Source: an uncultured delta proteobacterium | GTDB taxonomy: Bacteria > Desulfobacterota > Binatia > Binatales > Binataceae | DNA: 64,000 nt | Direction of reading: 5' to 3' | Assembly (NCBI GenBank): GCA_963848285.1 | Contig: CAWKCZ010000003.1 | Coordinates: 964,009-1,028,008, forward strand | Shown here: positions 10,829 through 17,224 of the stretch, piece by piece | Layout of the letters: each line of letters opens with the position of its first letter | Position numbering within the stretch: the first letter of the stretch is position 1 | Notes under the pieces: model-generated | What the model was told of the DNA's origin: nothing | What the model saw: the letters and a program-made list of their open reading frames with translations, nothing else | Databases searched by the model: none | Translations under genes and position numbers: made by a program

Positions 10829-11701
10829 ATGAAAGTTCGCAAGGCTGTAGTTGTGGCCGCCGGGCTCGGCACGCGGATGCTGCCGGCCTCCAAGGTGCTT
10901 TCCAAGGAGATTCTGCCGGTGGTCGATACGCCAGCGATCCAGCTTATCGTCGAGGAGGCGATCGCCTCGGGCATCGAGGAAGTCATCGTTGTCATCACGC
11001 CCGGCCGCACGATGGTGCTGGATCACTTCAAGCCCGCCCTCGAACTCGAGCGCAGCTCGAGGCGAAGGGCAAGACCGACGTTCTCGAGATGATCCGCAAG
11101 ACCAACGCGCCGGTGAAGCTGACCGCGGCATACCAGGAAAAGCCGCTGGGCCTCGGCCATGCCGTACTGCAGGGAGCCAAGGCGGTTGGCGATGAGCCAT
11201 TCGCCGTGTTCCTGCCCGACGACATCATCGATGCGGACAAGCCCTGTTTGCGCCAGTTGCTCGACGTCGCCGAAAAGAAAGATTCGCCGGTGGTAGCACT
11301 TCTGCGAGTTGCGCAAAGCGAGCTGTCGAAGTACGGCATCGTCGCGGTCAAGCCGGCGGGCGACGCGTGTGTATGAGCTTACCGGCATGGTCGAAAAGCC
11401 TCCGCCAGGCAAAGCGCCGAGTGAGTTCGCCATCATGGGACGTTACGTGCTGACGCCGGATATCTTCGACCTCATTCGGCAGGGCAAGCCGGGCGCCGGT
11501 GGGGAAATTCAGCTTACCGATGCGTTGCTTGGGCTGGTCAAGCAGCGCAAGATCTATGGCTACGAGTTCGAGGGCACGCGGTACGACCTCGGCGACCGGG
11601 TCGGCTACATCACGGCGCAAATCGGCTACGGCTTGAAACGCCCGGAACTCGCTGATAGGTTGCGGGCCTACCTCGACACGGTGACCTCGCGCAAGAATTA
11701 G
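10829..11701 (+). pseudogene. galU: UTP--glucose-1-phosphate uridylyltransferase GalU, with the frame broken twice
   Basis: Frame 1 reads MKVRKAVVVAAGLGTRMLPASKVLSKEILPVVDTPAIQLIVEEA...FKPALELE. Frame 2, from ~11045, reads LEAKGKTDVLEMIR...LGLGHAVLQGAKAVGDEPFAVFLPDD...KYGIVAVKPAGD. Frame 3, from ~11365, reads RVYELTGMVEKPPPGKAPSEFAIMGRYVLTPDIF...EIQLTDAL...YGYEFEGTRYDLGDRVGY. Together these form a colinear GalU. Confidence 0.85.
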
Positions 11702-11708
11702 CCTCGGT

Positions 11709-11784
11709 GGGGCAGTAGCTCAGCTGGGAGAGCACAACGTTCGCAACGTTGGGGTCGAGGGTTCAAATCCCTTCTGCTCCACCA
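11709..11784 (+). tRNA. tRNA-Ala (anticodon CGC) with encoded CCA
   Basis: A hand-folded cloverleaf: acceptor GGGGCAG/CTGCTCC with G3:U70, D arm GCTC-AGCTGGGA-GAGC, anticodon arm CAACG-TTCGCAA-CGTTG, T arm GAGGG-TTCAAAT-CCCTT, and 3' ACCA. Confidence 0.95.
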
Positions 11785-12185
11785 TCCAATCCCTCGCTTG
11801 CTAGCATGGCCATGGGTAATTCCAGGCAGACCAGGCCACTTGAGGTGCCGTCGAGGACGAAAGCTCCCCCGCCGCACCACTTGATTCGGCGGGTAAGTGC
11901 TATGACAGATTCACAATTCTGCGTTTGACTTAGCTAATCCATTTTTATACTAACCATATCGTCGCCGCGGAATCCTCGGGCACCAAAGCAATACATAGAG
12001 TTAGGTTGCTAGTGGTCTGCGGAAAAGGTCGCCGCGGGGGGTAGCCATGCCTTCATTTCGCTCGTTGCGAACATTGCTTCGATTTCCTTCGATGGAAACG
12101 AGCTTTCTCGGCATGACTCTGGGTTAGGGTTTTCCGCAGAAGGACTCGGCCATTACCGATGGTCGAGAGCCAGGGAGGGGTTCCT

Positions 12186-13941
12186 ATGAAACGAGGTCCG
12201 AAGACCGGCAAGAGCATAACGCGTGGCATTCTCAGCTTCGCCGTTGTAGCCGCTTTCCTTATGTTTACATTGGCGTCGCCCGCAACACCTGCAACGAGCC
12301 TGCGCAAGGCCGCCCAGTCGAGCATCGGAACCGCCGACGAAACCAGCGATCCGAGTACTCAACTCGTAGGTTTCTATGATGTGTCCGAGCCCGCGAGCGA
12401 GAACGGCACCGGTGCCGGCGATAATATCCTGCAGCTGATCAATACGACTTCGTCCAGCGGCGATCTGTGCGCGATGATCTACGTCTTCGACGATGATGAG
12501 GAAATGGGCGAATGCTGTGGATGCGCCCTAACCCCAAACGGAACCTTGTTGTTGTCCTTTCGCAATGATCTGACCAGCAACTGGCGCGAGGCTTCCAACG
12601 ATTTTGAAAGCGGAGTCGTCCAGATCTTATCCGCTTCTCAAAATGCGGCTCCGGCTTCTTGCCTTCCGTCCAGCGGATGCAACGGGGGATGCGATCCCAG
12701 TGTCGCCTACGTGCAAACACCGCAGCTCAACGGTAGCATCACCAGGGCAGAGCGTATCGGTGGCGCTTTTGGGTTAACCGAAACTGCGTTGAGCGACAGG
12801 GGCAGTGCCGGGGAGGAGGAACAAGGCTTCCTCACCGCGCAATGCTCCAACATCGTGCAACATGGTTCGCACAAGGGAATCTGCTCTTGCGAACCAAACC
12901 CGCCACCTCCCACCCCAACCGCGACCGCTACTCAGAGCCGCAACCGCGACCGCTTCGTCCTCGTCGACCGCCACTCAAAGTGCTACGGCAACCCAGACGG
13001 CGACCGCCACTGATACCCAGACGGCGACTGCCACTGCGACCCAGACGGCGACCGCCACCGCGACTCAGACGGCGACCGCTACCGCAACCCAGACGGCGAC
13101 CGCCACTGATACCCAGACGGCGACCGCCACCCTGACCCAAACGGCAACCACCACCGCGACCGAGACGGCGACCGCTACTGCAACCGAAACGGCTACTGCG
13201 ACCCCGACTGCAACAGCGACGGCGACTTCGCAGTTTGTAACCTCCGGCACGAGCTTCAATGTTCCGGCCGACTGGAACGACAGCAATAACACCATCGAGT
13301 GCATCGGTGCGGGAGGTGGTGGTGCTAGCACTAACGGAGCGGCCGGCGGCGGCGGTGGCGCGTATTGCAAGGCCGTCAATGTCAGCCTCACTCCCAGCGG
13401 CAGCGTTCAAATCCAGATCGGAGCTGGAGGCGCAGCACATACCGCGGGCACCGCATCCTGGTTCAACGGCACCAGCTCAACTGTAGCCTCGTGTGGGGCC
13501 GCGGGCGGGGCAGGCGGCAGCGGTGGTACGGCCGGCGCGGGTGGAACAACCGCTAACAGTATCGGAGGGACCACCTTCAAAGGCGGCAATGGTGGCAGGC
13601 ACTTGTGGAAACACTTGTGCGTCCGCGGGCGGCGGGGGAGCGGGTGGCCCCAACGGGGCAGGCGTCAATGGCGCGAGTGCTCCAAGCATTATCCTGGTGC
13701 CGGTGGCGCAGGTGATAATGGTTCCGGTGGCACCGGCGGGGTAGTAGGTGGGGGCGCTGGCGGAAATGGCACAGAATTCCAAGTCTCACCAGCCTTTGGA
13801 AGTGGAGGCGGCGGCGGCTCGGGAACGGGCAGCGCCAATGGCGGAGCCGGCGGCACTTACGGCGCGGGTGGCGGCGGCGCTGGCCATGGAGGCGGCGTAG
13901 GCAGCAACGGGCTCTGCATTGTCACGTACACGCCGCTTTAA
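12186..13941 (+). pseudogene. secreted mosaic protein: Cys-rich N-terminal domain, Thr/Ala/Gln 8-aa tandem-repeat linker, and C-terminal glycine-rich domain. The frame is broken about 3 times.
   Basis: An AGGGAGGGG Shine-Dalgarno sequence precedes the ATG at 12186, followed by a signal/anchor (ILSFAVVAAFLMFTLASPA). The N-domain has GECCGCAL, SCLPSSGCNGGCD and GICSC. A frame switch near 12938 leads into (TQTATATA)n. The C-domain reads FVTSGTSFNVPADW...IECIGAGGGGAS...GGGGGAYCK...GLCIVTYTPL. An internal stretch (~13591-13690) gives glycine-rich sequence (AGTCGNTCASAGGGGAGGPNGAGVNGASAPS) only in another frame. Confidence 0.6.
12967..13230 (+). repeat. 24-bp tandem repeat, about 11 units, consensus ACCCAGACGGCGACCGCCACYGCG, encoding TQTATATA
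   Basis: Units read directly from the sequence start at 12991, 13015, 13039, 13063, 13087, 13111, 13135, 13159, 13183 and 13207. A degenerate unit lies at 12967. Variation is mostly at third-codon positions and the last two codons. Confidence 0.9.
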
Positions 13942-14002
13942 CGGCTGATGCAAAAGCTGATGACGGTGGCATCAAGAAATTGAGCGCCGGAATTCGATGA
14001 TG

Positions 14003-14042
14003 GCGAGGCAGCACGGGTGATTGAATTACCGTGCTGCCTCGC
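14003..14042. terminator. perfect 14-bp inverted repeat between convergent genes (candidate bidirectional terminator)
   Basis: GCGAGGCAGCACGG (14003-14016), a 12-nt loop, then CCGTGCTGCCTCGC (14029-14042). It lies between the stop of the glycine-rich gene (13941) and the stop of mepA (14183). There is no strong U-tract on either side. Confidence 0.55.
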
Positions 14043-14182
14043 GCAATTTGGGCGCGCGAATCATGCGTTCCTGAAAGCCCGCACGACGCCGCGCGAAGCA
14101 GAATGACACGCACATCGGTTGGCAAGCTTGCGGCGAATCTTTGCCAGACTTATCTGGCGGCGCTTCCGGGGGTCCACATCGA

Positions 14183-15136
14183 TCAGCGGCCGGACTTTGA
14201 ACCGTGGGAGCGATCAGGTCCGGGGGGCGCAGCGACGAGCGCGGCACAGGCCGCCGGTAGATCGCCAAGCCGCAGCGGTTTTGAGACCGGCGACGGTCGC
14301 GGATGGCGCGCCGCTTCGGTGAACCACCACTCGAGTTCTTTGCCGCATCCGTCGCCGGGCGGCGGTATTTCTTGCCCACGACATTGAGGGTTCCCGCTCG
14401 GACAGAAAAGCCGGACATGGAAATGGTAATTGTGCCCCCACCACGGCCTGATCTTGGTCAACCAGGTTCGCTCCGATCCGCCCTCGCGGCACAGCGCGCG
14501 CTTGATCGCCGGGTTGACAAAAACGCGCTCCACCGACGGCTCTCGGGCGACCGCCTCCAGCAATCGACGATGCGACGGCGTCCAGACTCTCGGGTCGATG
14601 TCCAATCCATTCTTTGCGACAACGTCGGTTGCCGAAATATCGTCCCGCTCGGCCGGACTGAGCCGCCGCTTCGGCATTGGGGTCAGCCAGATGTCGGCAT
14701 CGAGGCCGATCTGGTGCGAGCCATGGCCGGTCAGCATCGGTCCGCCGCGGGGCTGTGCGATGTCACCGATGAGAAGCCCGGGCCAGCCGGCTTCGCTCGG
14801 CAGTTTTTCTGCCAACCGTTCAAGAAAGGCGATCAGGGCCGGATGGCCCCACGCGCGGTTGCGTGATGGACGCATGACCTGCCAGTCCGGCCCGTCGGCA
14901 GGCATTGCGATGGCGCCACTTAGACAGCCGCGAGCATAGGACCCGATAGCCTCCGGCGGGCCGAGCGCAGGGATGCTCTCTTGTCCGAACAAAACTTTCG
15001 CCGCATCGGGCGGCAACTGCGCTATCACCATGGCGCGGCGCCGCGCCTCTTGGGCGGCGGTGTCCTGGGCCGAAGCGTCTCTGCAGCCAAGACAGACCAG
15101 CAGCATCAACATGCCGCATAGGCAGAGGCTTCTCAT
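14183..15136 (-). CDS. mepA: penicillin-insensitive murein endopeptidase MepA
   Basis: The ORF contains MRPSRNRAWGHPALIAF, GHGSHQIGLDADIWL and WWGHNYHFHVRL (MepA zinc ligand motifs). The signal peptide starts at the internal Met (MRSLCLCGMLMLLVCLGC), so I placed the start at 15136 rather than 15187. Confidence 0.85.
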   Translation of the reverse strand: MRSLCLCGMLMLLVCLGCRDASAQDTAAQEARRRAMVIAQLPPDAAKVLFGQESIPALGPPEAIGSYARGCLSGAIAMPADGPDWQVMRPSRNRAWGHPALIAFLERLAEKLPSEAGWPGLLIGDIAQPRGGPMLTGHGSHQIGLDADIWLTPMPKRRLSPAERDDISATDVVAKNGLDIDPRVWTPSHRRLLEAVAREPSVERVFVNPAIKRALCREGGSERTWLTKIRPWWGHNYHFHVRLFCPSGNPQCRGQEIPPPGDGCGKELEWWFTEAARHPRPSPVSKPLRLGDLPAACAALVAAPPGPDRSHGSKSGR

Positions 15137-15191
15137 GACGGCGGCTCTCCACCGAATTCGTCTGAGGTTCTGCCCAGAGGGCAACATCGGG

Positions 15192-16658
15192 CTAATTGGG
15201 CTGCCACCCAGGCGGCATCTGTTTCTTCGTAGCGACGACGACCTTCCATTGAGGGGGATTTTGCTTTGCGTCCTCCACCAGCTTGTAAGTGCCGATGATC
15301 ACGCCTCCGCTATAACAGCAACTGGGGTCGCTGCGATTGTAGATCGGATCGAAGAACACCCAGGTTCCGCCCTCAAAATAGGCGTCTCCATATTCCCCGC
15401 TCGCCGGAACCGGGACCAATCGATCGTTTTCGATCTTGTAGAAATCGTTACCCTGATAATGAAACCCATCAGACGAGGGGATTTCGAGAAAGAATCCTCT
15501 TTGCTCAGTGACGCCGACATCGCTGATGCGCTGGTAGTTCGCCTTGAAGATGGATGGATGCCCATAGTGGATTCCCGTTCCGTCCTCCTCCGGGTCGGAG
15601 TACATCACCTGCTCTTGTCGATATTGATCCGGCGCGACCTTCTTCCAGATCACCAATCGATCTGAGCGGTCCTGTCCCGCATGGACCGTGATGATCAATG
15701 GTGTATTGAGCCCGGCGCCATTTGCGAGCGGCACCTTGTTGACCAACTGCGATGGATATTCGTGATCGGAATCGGCCGGAATCATCGCGTCCATCTGCTT
15801 CGCGCTGTAAAGACGATTATCCGGACCGGGAAGCTTGTCGCCTGACGGAGCTTCATTTTTATCCGCGGCTTCGGCAGCCTTTTGCGCTTCACCCCCAGCC
15901 TGGAGGAGGGCAGTTATCGCGCTGCTGCGGACGTCGGAGTTCGGGTCTTTGAGCGCGGCCGTAAGAGGCGCAATCGCGTCGGGCGGGATCGGTTTCATGC
16001 CGGCAAGCGCGTAGGCTGCGTTTTGCCGGACATACAGGTTGGAACTTTTGAGCGCGCGAGCCAGCGCCGGCACCGCGGCAGCCCCGATCTCGGAGAGCGG
16101 GCCAACCGAATCGGACGGAGGTCGTTCGCCCAGATTCGCGATCAGCATCTGCGTCAGATAAGGACAACGCGGCTTGATCCCCAATATCGTGCGAAGCAAA
16201 AAGCTTCGGTTGTCCGGGTCGTGTGCGAGGGCCTTCTCCAGCGCTGAGCACGCCCCGACACCTTCTAGCTGAGCCAAGGCTTGTCCAGCCGGCGCCCGAA
16301 TGTAGGATTGCCGATCTTTGGCGAGCGCATGTTCCAGAGCGGGAATCGCCGGCTTGGCCGCAGGTCCCATTTTTTGAAGAACCTCGATCGCGGAGCCGGC
16401 AAACGAGCCATCTCCCTCCATGACCAGCCGGATGAAAATCGGAAGCACCCGGAGATCAGTTGGATCGGCGTAGTAAAGCGCGAAAGCCGCATAGCATTGC
16501 GTCTCGGGATCGGAATCCTTGAGCGCTTGCGTCAACTCGGGCAACACGGGATCCAGATCCTTGGGTTCGATTCTGTTCTTGGTCCCACGTTGCTCTTTCG
16601 CAGAAATCTGAGACCAACCCGCCATGGTGTCGATTGTCCGCAGCGCGCCTTTTCTCAT
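15192..16658 (-). CDS. HEAT-repeat protein (C-terminal portion), with a ~200-aa C-terminal domain of unknown function
   Basis: Repeated HEAT/PBS-type units are present (LTQALKDSDPETQCYAAFAL, AIPALEHALAKDRQSYIRAPAGQAL, VPALARALKSSNLYVRQNAAYAL, LTAALKDPNSDVRSSAITAL). It overlaps the upstream ORF by ATGA (16655-16658). Confidence 0.65.
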   Translation of the reverse strand: MRKGALRTIDTMAGWSQISAKEQRGTKNRIEPKDLDPVLPELTQALKDSDPETQCYAAFALYYADPTDLRVLPIFIRLVMEGDGSFAGSAIEVLQKMGPAAKPAIPALEHALAKDRQSYIRAPAGQALAQLEGVGACSALEKALAHDPDNRSFLLRTILGIKPRCPYLTQMLIANLGERPPSDSVGPLSEIGAAAVPALARALKSSNLYVRQNAAYALAGMKPIPPDAIAPLTAALKDPNSDVRSSAITALLQAGGEAQKAAEAADKNEAPSGDKLPGPDNRLYSAKQMDAMIPADSDHEYPSQLVNKVPLANGAGLNTPLIITVHAGQDRSDRLVIWKKVAPDQYRQEQVMYSDPEEDGTGIHYGHPSIFKANYQRISDVGVTEQRGFFLEIPSSDGFHYQGNDFYKIENDRLVPVPASGEYGDAYFEGGTWVFFDPIYNRSDPSCCYSGGVIIGTYKLVEDAKQNPPQWKVVVATKKQMPPGWQPN

Positions 16659-17224
16659 CCCGGGTCACTGCCACGTAGTTGGTCGAAGAGAAGCGGAAGC
16701 ACGGGTTTACCCACGGACGCCAATCTGGTCATCGCGTCGGGGTATCCATGCTTCTTGTCAATATCGATCAAAATCGGCCATACCTTGGGGGTCTTGGGAG
16801 CGAGGCATCCCAGCAGATTGACTCCGATCTGCCGAAGGAAACCGCCGGTCTGGACCCAGCGCTGCACGGTTGGAATCGCGGCGGTCCCGGCATTACAGAT
16901 GGCTGCCTCGGCGTAGTCCCGGACCTGGTTGTCACCGCCCGTCGCCTCCACAATCGTGATCATTGTTTGCAGGGTCTCGGATGAAACCGGTTCGATTTTG
17001 CTGAGGGCCTTGGCTGCGTCGCGCTGTTTCTGGATATCCGGATCATGCAACTGCTGCAGGAGGTGCGCGGTGTCCTTGGTAGCTTCGGCGGCATCCTTGG
17101 TACCTTGGGCGGCGTGCGCGATGCCCAAGTAGACTGCCCCAGTAAGAACGACGACGCTGACGAGCAGCGCGATGCGAATGGCGGTTCGAAATACTCTGGC
17201 CATGGCAGTCACAGAGTTTACCAC
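16655..17224 (-). CDS. HEAT-repeat protein (N-terminal portion with a membrane anchor)
   Basis: The ORF has an N-terminal TM (IRIALLVSVVVLTGAVYLGIAHA), followed by LLQQLHDPDIQKQRDAAKAL and further HEAT-like helices. It ends ...LLFDQLRGSDPG directly abutting MRKGALRTI of the next ORF. Confidence 0.65.
   Translation of the reverse strand: MVNSVTAMARVFRTAIRIALLVSVVVLTGAVYLGIAHAAQGTKDAAEATKDTAHLLQQLHDPDIQKQRDAAKALSKIEPVSSETLQTMITIVEATGGDNQVRDYAEAAICNAGTAAIPTVQRWVQTGGFLRQIGVNLLGCLAPKTPKVWPILIDIDKKHGYPDAMTRLASVGKPVLPLLFDQLRGSDPG

Follow-up and report, generated by a model that had tools for sequence, protein, structure and literature searches.

The stretch of DNA analysed here, referred to below as the window, comprises 64,000 nucleotides from an uncultured delta proteobacterium of the Binataceae (assembly GCA_963848285.1, contig CAWKCZ010000003.1, positions 964,009 to 1,028,008). 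Directly downstream of a tRNA-Ala gene it carries, at 12186-13941 on the plus strand, a coding region that we read with moderate confidence as one gene for an exported modular protein of three parts, belonging to a large family of the genus, the breaks in its reading frame being most likely errors of the assembly. The locus is laid out as follows.

11709-11784, plus strand: tRNA-Ala gene, anticodon CGC (ARAGORN; Rfam, 66 bits)
11785-12185, plus strand: non-coding leader of 401 nt with a guanine-plus-cytosine (GC) fraction of 0.539 and the Shine-Dalgarno-like GGGAGGGG at its 3' end (12173-12180)
12186-12293, plus strand: Sec-type signal peptide, residues 1-36, as read from the sequence and from the layout of the paralogues
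12294-12893, plus strand: N-terminal domain (N-domain) of an uncurated family, a predicted ten-cysteine β-sandwich with one helix; core motif CAMIYVFDDDEEMGECCGC
12894-13227, plus strand: Pro-rich hinge, then Thr/Ala/Gln spacer, residues 237-347, containing the first frame break and a minisatellite
13228-13941, plus strand: C-terminal domain (C-domain), a predicted TNF-like and polyglycine head, residues 348-584, with the second and third frame breaks inside and the stop codon at 13939-13941
14003-14042, no strand assigned: perfectly paired 14-bp hairpin, loop of 12 nt, between convergent gene ends

A first-pass annotation, made by a model from the sequence alone, had pointed out the tRNA-Ala gene with an AT-richer leader of about 400 nt behind it, a number of peptide motifs, about 11 repeat units and the perfect hairpin. 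All of these were recovered: the motifs are present in the translations, the repeat amounts to ~10-11 eight-residue units, and the hairpin arms lie at 14003-14016 and 14029-14042. The same annotation had described a single gene. The description of one mosaic, exported, three-part gene was upheld, but no single open reading frame (ORF) covers it, as the gene contains three frame changes, at ~12936, ~13597 and ~13691. ORF1 (12159-13013) is in frame 0 and ORF2 (12805-13941) in frame +1. From the likely start, the ATG at 12186, five bases after GGGAGGGG, frame 0 reads the signal peptide, the Cys-rich domain and EPNPPPPTPTATATQ, followed by nonsense, and frame +1 carries on the linker from 12937 as AATATASSSSTATQSATATQTATATDTQ; since the two together give a continuous linker, one extra base at ~12936 parts its halves. 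Within the glycine-rich part, the odd-looking stretch RHLWKHLCVRGRRGSGWPQRGRRQWRECSKHY stands where an intact homologue, P0051, has KGGDGGSTCGTSCASAGGGGAGGPNGAGVDGTSAPSITPGAGGAGDNG, and frame 2 at 13598-13690 gives GTCGNTCASAGGGGAGGPNGAGVNGASAPSI, the counterpart of which in P0051 is STCGTSCASAGGGGAGGPNGAGVDGTSAPSI. The alignment with P0051 and this alternative frame place an extra base at ~13597 and a missing base at ~13691. That the head contained no internal frameshifts had at first been taken from the lower score of the frame-patched domain on the Pfam profile Gly_rich_2 (19.3 versus 26.9 bits), a view that was overturned by the P0051 alignment.

Reading through the three sites yields a protein of 584 amino acids, with a signal peptide at 1-36, the N-domain up to ~236, the spacer at 237-347 and the head at 348-584. 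That these parts belong to one gene is supported by the hinge and the Thr/Ala repeat, which run on across the break at 12936, and by the +1 frame, which has no start codon after 12862 before the head and no signal peptide of its own. Away from the breaks there are no in-frame stops, and the break sites are neither homopolymer runs nor slippery heptamers.

The signal peptide was recognized by inspection: five K/R residues within residues 1-13 make up a basic n-region, which is followed by a 16-residue hydrophobic core (ILSFAVVAAFLMFTLA) and by a putative cleavage site between TPA and TS, in the context TPA then TSLRK. The paralogues share this layout, with AxA and then (A/T)(S/T)LR(K/R) at the same place, and residues 4-28 form a helix in an AlphaFold2 model of P0051. 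The n-h-c layout together with the even numbers of cysteines (10 + 6) suggests Sec-dependent export.

The N-domain is structured over residues ~58-236. The first-pass annotation could not assign it to any family, and profile searches bear this out: it had no match in Pfam, NCBIfam, the PHROGs or the sequences of the PDB, and none in the PDB even with a profile of 97 sequences. The window protein carries the motif CAMIYVFD..E.GECCGC, the conserved set of cysteines and the preceding signal peptide of a family that was delineated here, all invariant columns are present in it, and it matches family members with E values of 1e-53 to 1e-61. In the family alignment C95, C110, C111, C113 and C233 are invariant and C165, C169, C220 and C235 nearly so. 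Ten cysteines follow the signal peptide in 57 of the 97 members, and two of the ten are lost together; the domain is probably stapled by five disulfides. AlphaFold2, supplied with the family alignment, predicted an eight-stranded sandwich with one helix at a mean predicted local distance difference test (pLDDT) score of 83 (core >90) and a predicted template modelling score of 0.74. With this model as the query, no viral model in BFVD matched at an E value below 1e-3. Among PDB folds, such values were reached only by those of the ASRT/TM1070 β-sandwich (ASRT, the Anabaena sensory rhodopsin transducer; TM1070, 1nc7: E 1.6e-4, TM score about 0.7 over the 116-residue target), a superfamily for which De Souza et al. 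predicted sugar binding (PMC2739507). Unlike these proteins, to which no sequence-profile link was found, the N-domain is larger and extracytoplasmic and contains ten cysteines. It thus combines a confident predicted fold with the lack of a solved relative.

The C-domain was noted in the first-pass annotation as glycine-rich and similar to modules of phage fibres, and both parts of that statement were borne out. It consists for 35% of Gly, contains six Cys and many GGGG runs, and as encoded scores 26.9 bits on Pfam PF21722 Gly_rich_2 (cut-off 24.3; 24.9 bits in the genome scan), the match covering positions 4-225 of the 226 of the profile; P0051 reaches 33.8 bits. Weak matches to phrog_863 and phrog_2295 cover the head only. 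In the AlphaFold2 model of P0051 the head has pLDDT values >90, its Gly segments being mostly neither helix nor strand, and its best PDB match by Foldseek is the fibre protein gp24 of cyanophage Pam3 (7ypx_A; E 2.4e-7, probability 1.0, 22% identity), followed by the tail tip of mycobacteriophage Bxb1 and the TNF-like/glycine-rich domain of ALK. On this model the C-domain is predicted to adopt a TNF-like plus polyglycine fold of the fibre-tip kind.

In Pam3 the module that is TNF-like and rich in glycine forms the distal, receptor-recognising end of the fibre, in which the Gly stems are conserved and the tip varies, and its kinship with ALK was also remarked upon (PMC9608196). What the head would share with gp24 (PDB 7ypx, 7yfw), and with gp38 of Salmonella phage S16, is a C-terminal TNF-like β-sandwich that passes into a lattice of extended glycine-rich strands. 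Unlike gp24, the window protein is without an N-terminal α-helical shaft, a chaperone gene and a phage context, and has instead a Sec signal, a Cys-rich domain and a Thr/Ala spacer. The neighbours are likewise not those of a tail fibre, being tRNA-Ala, galU and mepA in the window and housekeeping genes around the homologues. With the ligand-binding domain of ALK/LTK (PDB 7nx4, 7lrz) the likeness, in the TNF-like sandwich, the polyglycine helices and the binding of a ligand, is weak (E 0.014-0.17) and very distant, these being eukaryotic receptor kinases. Pfam defines PF21722 as glycine-rich domain-containing proteins of bacteria and phages, without a fusion to a Cys-rich N-domain, and a literature search for PF21722 or Gly_rich_2 found no paper.

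The spacer between the two domains is 111 residues long and consists for 45% of T and 31% of A. Tandem Repeats Finder detected 9.1 copies of a 24-bp unit at 12991-13208, and degenerate units flank this array on both sides. DNA resembling the Thr/Ala linker (66-72% identity) was also seen elsewhere in the genome, at C6:353200-353426, C2:1153628-1157641, C7:351682-352049, C5:165996-166216 and C1:318002-318177, and several further genes probably make use of such linkers.

The three parts had been thought not to occur together normally. This is contradicted by at least five intact proteins of 536-608 amino acids that have the same order of parts, namely P0051 (536 amino acids), P0264 (588), P0261 (608), P0262 (594) and P0263 (599), and by the N-domain itself, which is common and promiscuous. 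The genes for P0051 and P0264 are tandem neighbours in G009, another genome of the genus, flanked by katG and housekeeping genes and with no phage genes nearby. The window head is 71-82% identical to those of the five homologues (82% to P0051) and the N-domain only 30-36%; the latter is ~50% identical to stand-alone proteins and to an Ice_binding fusion, P0002. In a tree of 107 N-domain rows, a single clade of the six Gly-headed N-domains was rejected by the approximately unbiased test, run without the identical row P0001 (log-likelihood difference 70.4, p = 2e-8). From this rejection, and the two origins that it makes necessary, it follows that the glycine-rich head was joined to two different N-domain lineages. 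Presumably the joining was the result of recombination within the repetitive linker or close to it, the putative position of the junction. The copy in the window unites an N-domain lineage that otherwise occurs alone or with ice-binding-like heads, and a head that is elsewhere found on a different N-domain lineage.

A full HMMER search of 1.84 billion cluster representatives (clusters at 50% identity) matched 1150 of them to the N-domain family with E <= 1e-3, of which 306 reach E <= 1e-10. The majority are exported stand-alone proteins, 200-270 amino acids long, and carry the annotation 'hypothetical'. In fusions the domain is found N-terminal to Ice_binding, Gly_rich_2, an NHL-propeller and several unidentified domains, and C-terminal to arrays of Big_2, Kelch, Laminin_G_3 and DUF4394. 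Between 2 and 31 matches per genome were obtained in eight of the nine other genomes of the genus; at wider range, matches were present in six of 15 other genera of the family and, outside the family but within the class, in one of 16 genomes. When species genomes were scanned for the pattern, the domain family turned up in metagenome-assembled genomes (MAGs) titled 'uncultured delta proteobacterium' and 'Candidatus Binataceae' and also in Acidobacteriota, e.g., Paracidobacterium acidisoli. In ~20 of 80 loci of other genomes the family gene has in its vicinity, mostly just downstream (~0.5-2 kb), a gene with DsbA/Thioredoxin_4 and SurA_N domains, which fits a disulfide-dependent exported protein; these loci, within the set L020-L099, belong to Acidobacteriota and to some MAGs of the Binataceae type. 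Seven family loci of the same set contain ABC exporter genes. In six loci of related MAGs (L026, L027, L028, L029, L035 and L040), small proteins of ~163 amino acids are encoded upstream (~1500-2240) of the N-domain genes. In each, a PqqD-like domain (26 bits) is combined with a hydrophobic segment and, at the C-terminus, a tail with six cysteines (C-x6-C-x5-CC-x3-C-x5-C), which matches spider knottin toxin families weakly. It is a strange fusion to meet repeatedly beside the family.

The genome to which the window belongs contains 10 further matches, corresponding to ~8 gene copies. Five N-domain paralogues form a tandem array at C2:1134289-1139607, one of them frame-broken. The closest N-domain (61%) is encoded at C5:485469-487224 on the minus strand, where a linker of Thr/Ala repeats and a head of the Ice_binding type (PF11999, 157 bits) come after it; at least two frame changes interrupt this paralogue. 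The region that includes the array (C2:1129841-1139607 of genome G000) starts with tRNA-Leu(TAG), followed by an element of ~4 kb with a 384-aa tyrosine integrase and then by the array. Near C2:1133900, with the array directly after it, there is an apparent partial copy of the 3' half of the tRNA-Leu, as judged from a recurring translated motif only. A DsbA/SurA-like gene is located just before the tRNA-Leu, at C2:1128210-1129181.

Breaks like those of the 12186-13941 gene occur in other genes of the assembly, which consists of only 7 contigs, yet has an estimated completeness of 69%. In the window, galU (10829-11701) has lost one base after 11052 and gained one at 11365, which spreads it over three frames; it is intact, with 303-304 codons, in five genomes of the genus. 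The copy of galU in genome G006 is likewise broken. Spot checks showed rpoC (G000:C6:214905-219066) to be split over two frames at ~217080, the adjoining rpoB being intact. The HEAT-repeat gene at 15192-17224 is split into ORFs of 488 and 189 codons, and its orthologue in genome G002 (L010, 9992-11989) is a single ORF of 665 codons; the break at ~16655 is probably another one-base assembly indel. As galU, rpoC and the HEAT gene are frame-broken, indels of the assembly are the likeliest cause of the breaks at 12186-13941 as well.

The surroundings of the gene were compared within the genus. A block of dksA, galU and tRNA-Ala is conserved at ~82% identity in eight of the nine other genomes. In the six of them for which downstream DNA was compared, homology breaks off at 11782-11799, nothing in the following 4-7.5 kb is shared with the window or between the six, and the gene is not conserved at this site in any of the six. 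Directly after the orthologous tRNA-Ala, genome G002 (L014, C4) encodes a tyrosine integrase of the P4 type (Arm-DNA-bind_3, Phage_int_M, Phage_integrase) and genome G006 (L012, C5) a large serine recombinase; the presence of these different mobile elements makes the site an integration hot spot in the genus. On the right, homology to G002 resumes at 14124, on a different contig and beside tRNA-Val. It was proposed initially that the gene sits between two core genes, galU and mepA. The former carries the two one-base indels described above. The latter (14183-15187 in the window; L010 8759-9935; Peptidase_M74, 339 bits) is present in only two of the nine other genomes and adjoins tRNA-Val in G002, which makes it an accessory gene of a tRNA-linked variable region and not a core gene. 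The synteny check at tRNA-Ala, suggested at the same time as a way to recognize an insertion, showed variable occupancy of the site, the gene being absent there from the six genomes. On the genomes compared, the gene lies in a variable, rearranged region rather than in a demonstrable single-gene islet between core genes.

Several explanations of the locus have to be weighed against one gene for a three-part protein whose breaks were introduced by an indel-prone MAG assembly, a cause that we consider likely for these breaks, true decay of the gene being a good deal less so. In the latter case the gene would be a pseudogene with real mutations, one decaying member of an expanded family, situated in a variable region; at most a stand-alone N-domain of 284 amino acids with a junk tail would still be made. 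Dead copies are frequent in large paralogous families, two further family copies of this genome are broken (C5:486488-487224 and C2:1137775-1138639), and a truncation behind the N-domain might do no harm in a family that consists mostly of stand-alone N-domains. Three breaks within 1.75 kb are, moreover, at the high end even for this region. Counted over roughly 7 kb, the local density (two breaks in galU, one in the HEAT gene and three in this gene) is about one per kb, so that ~1.75 breaks are predicted here and three or more are unremarkable (Poisson P about 0.26). The essential or conserved single-copy genes rpoC and galU are broken alike, so that indels are no sign of decay in this assembly; furthermore, the gene has no in-frame stops away from the breaks and its head is still 82% identical to that of an intact homologue. 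We therefore regard the pseudogene as a possible but rather unlikely explanation. The frame changes could alternatively separate two genes, or be programmed (recoding, or phase variation at the repeat), with an N-domain protein being made together with a separate or conditional head. ORF1 (284 amino acids) is indeed close in size to the common stand-alone members, and the first break falls at the start of the repeat-encoded linker. Against this, the head frame is without a usable start, a ribosome-binding site or a signal peptide, none of the break sites is of a slippery or homopolymeric type, two more breaks lie within the head, where regulation makes no sense, and the intact homologues do without recoding, all of which renders this explanation highly improbable.

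A horizontally acquired single-gene islet at the tRNA-Ala, as the first-pass annotation had it, or a remnant there of a prophage or tailocin fibre, would account for the end of same-genus homology at the 3' end of the tRNA, for DNA beyond it that differs in every genome, for the integrase and recombinase found at the same tRNA in G002 and G006, and for the resemblance of the head to phage fibre tips. The GC content at third codon positions is also somewhat lower in the gene (0.57-0.66) than in the neighbouring genes (0.72-0.79). The overall GC fraction of 11785-14123 (0.609) equals the genome mean, however, the tRNA-Ala 3' end is not repeated (searched to 3 mismatches), and none of the three recombinases used as queries (from G002, G006 and contig C2) has a match in the 64-kb window. 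There are no adjacent phage genes, nor are there any in G009, where the homologues lie among katG and housekeeping genes; the N-terminus is a Sec signal and a family domain that is native to the genus and expanded in it, with no fibre shaft or baseplate adaptor, and the right flank with mepA is itself non-syntenic, the relative in which both flanks occur having them on separate contigs. An islet or fibre remnant is accordingly improbable, more so than a pseudogene. A single gene for an exported three-part protein is the explanation retained here, and several observations weigh against parts of it. The Gly_rich_2 score is marginal and unstable, as the frame-patched domain (19.3 bits) and P0264 (23.1 bits) stay below the threshold and the full-length read-through, P0261 and P0263 do not match the profile. 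The evidence for the fold of the head comes from P0051, with its 82%-identical head, and not from the window sequence. The fold matches of the N-domain, to TM1070 and ASRT, are weak (E 1.6e-4 to 1e-2, 8-16% identity, Foldseek), and a binding or anchoring role for this domain is a guess. Finally, the periplasm is as far as a Sec signal is certain to bring a protein of a diderm.

The leader at 11785-12185, the GC fraction of which is at the 4th percentile among genome windows of the same size, is not present in relatives in the same-genus comparison. Scans found no Rfam family, no sigma-70-like promoter and no canonical terminator in it, and it contains no ORF of note. The hairpin at 14003-14042 has no U-tract and was not called by the terminator scan; it may act as a bidirectional terminator. 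It is located inside the segment that is missing from G002, before the point at which homology restarts (14124).

How the protein might work can be sketched by analogy. It would cross the inner membrane by Sec, become oxidised and act as an extracytoplasmic binding protein; no support was found for the toxin-delivery role that had also been entertained. The disulfide-rich N-domain could be a stable base that anchors the protein to the cell envelope or binds glycans, and the Thr/Ala stretch an extended spacer or stalk, possibly of variable length and possibly glycosylated. The head would bind its ligand through the variable ends of the glycine-rich strands, as phage fibres do, and heads would be exchanged between N-domain lineages at the linker. 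A carbohydrate-binding module (CBM), a Pro/Thr linker and a functional domain make up the architecture of secreted bacterial glycoside hydrolases. The window protein resembles these in its signal peptide, its small disulfide-containing β-sandwich, its spacer rich in hydroxy-amino acids and its interchangeable second domain; it differs in that no catalytic domain was present among the partners scanned and that the N-domain matches no CBM family. A further comparison is with the secreted Ice_binding proteins (DUF3494, PF11999): in the sister copies, namely the C5 copy of the same genome, P0002 and P0085, the same N-domain and linker carry this β-solenoid head, a domain that is lacking from the window copy.

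What is known in this protein is the head of the phage-fibre type; what is new is its combination with the other parts, within a family that is uncatalogued, widespread and locally expanded. The family has no entry in Pfam, NCBIfam or PHROG, and once described it would give an annotation to many exported proteins now called 'hypothetical' in Binataceae-type bacteria and in Acidobacteriota. What is odd about the locus stems mainly from the quality of the assembly. As even rpoC and galU contain one-base indels, a break in frame is in this genome an unsafe indication of a pseudogene, recoding or a gene boundary unless the reads are checked. The locus offers a clean and statistically supported case of a phage-fibre-type binding head that has been shuffled in a cellular secretome. 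More speculatively, and we hold this only as a tentative proposal, the ten-cysteine N-domain could be an undescribed extracytoplasmic 'base' for combinatorial display in Binataceae-type soil bacteria, with dozens of copies per genome and with heads (TNF-like/polyglycine domains, ice-binding-like solenoids, propellers and domains still to be identified) that are swapped between base lineages through recombination within Thr/Ala/Pro linkers encoded by minisatellites. Such a display system, if true, would be the cellular counterpart of the shuffling of receptor-binding tips by phages.

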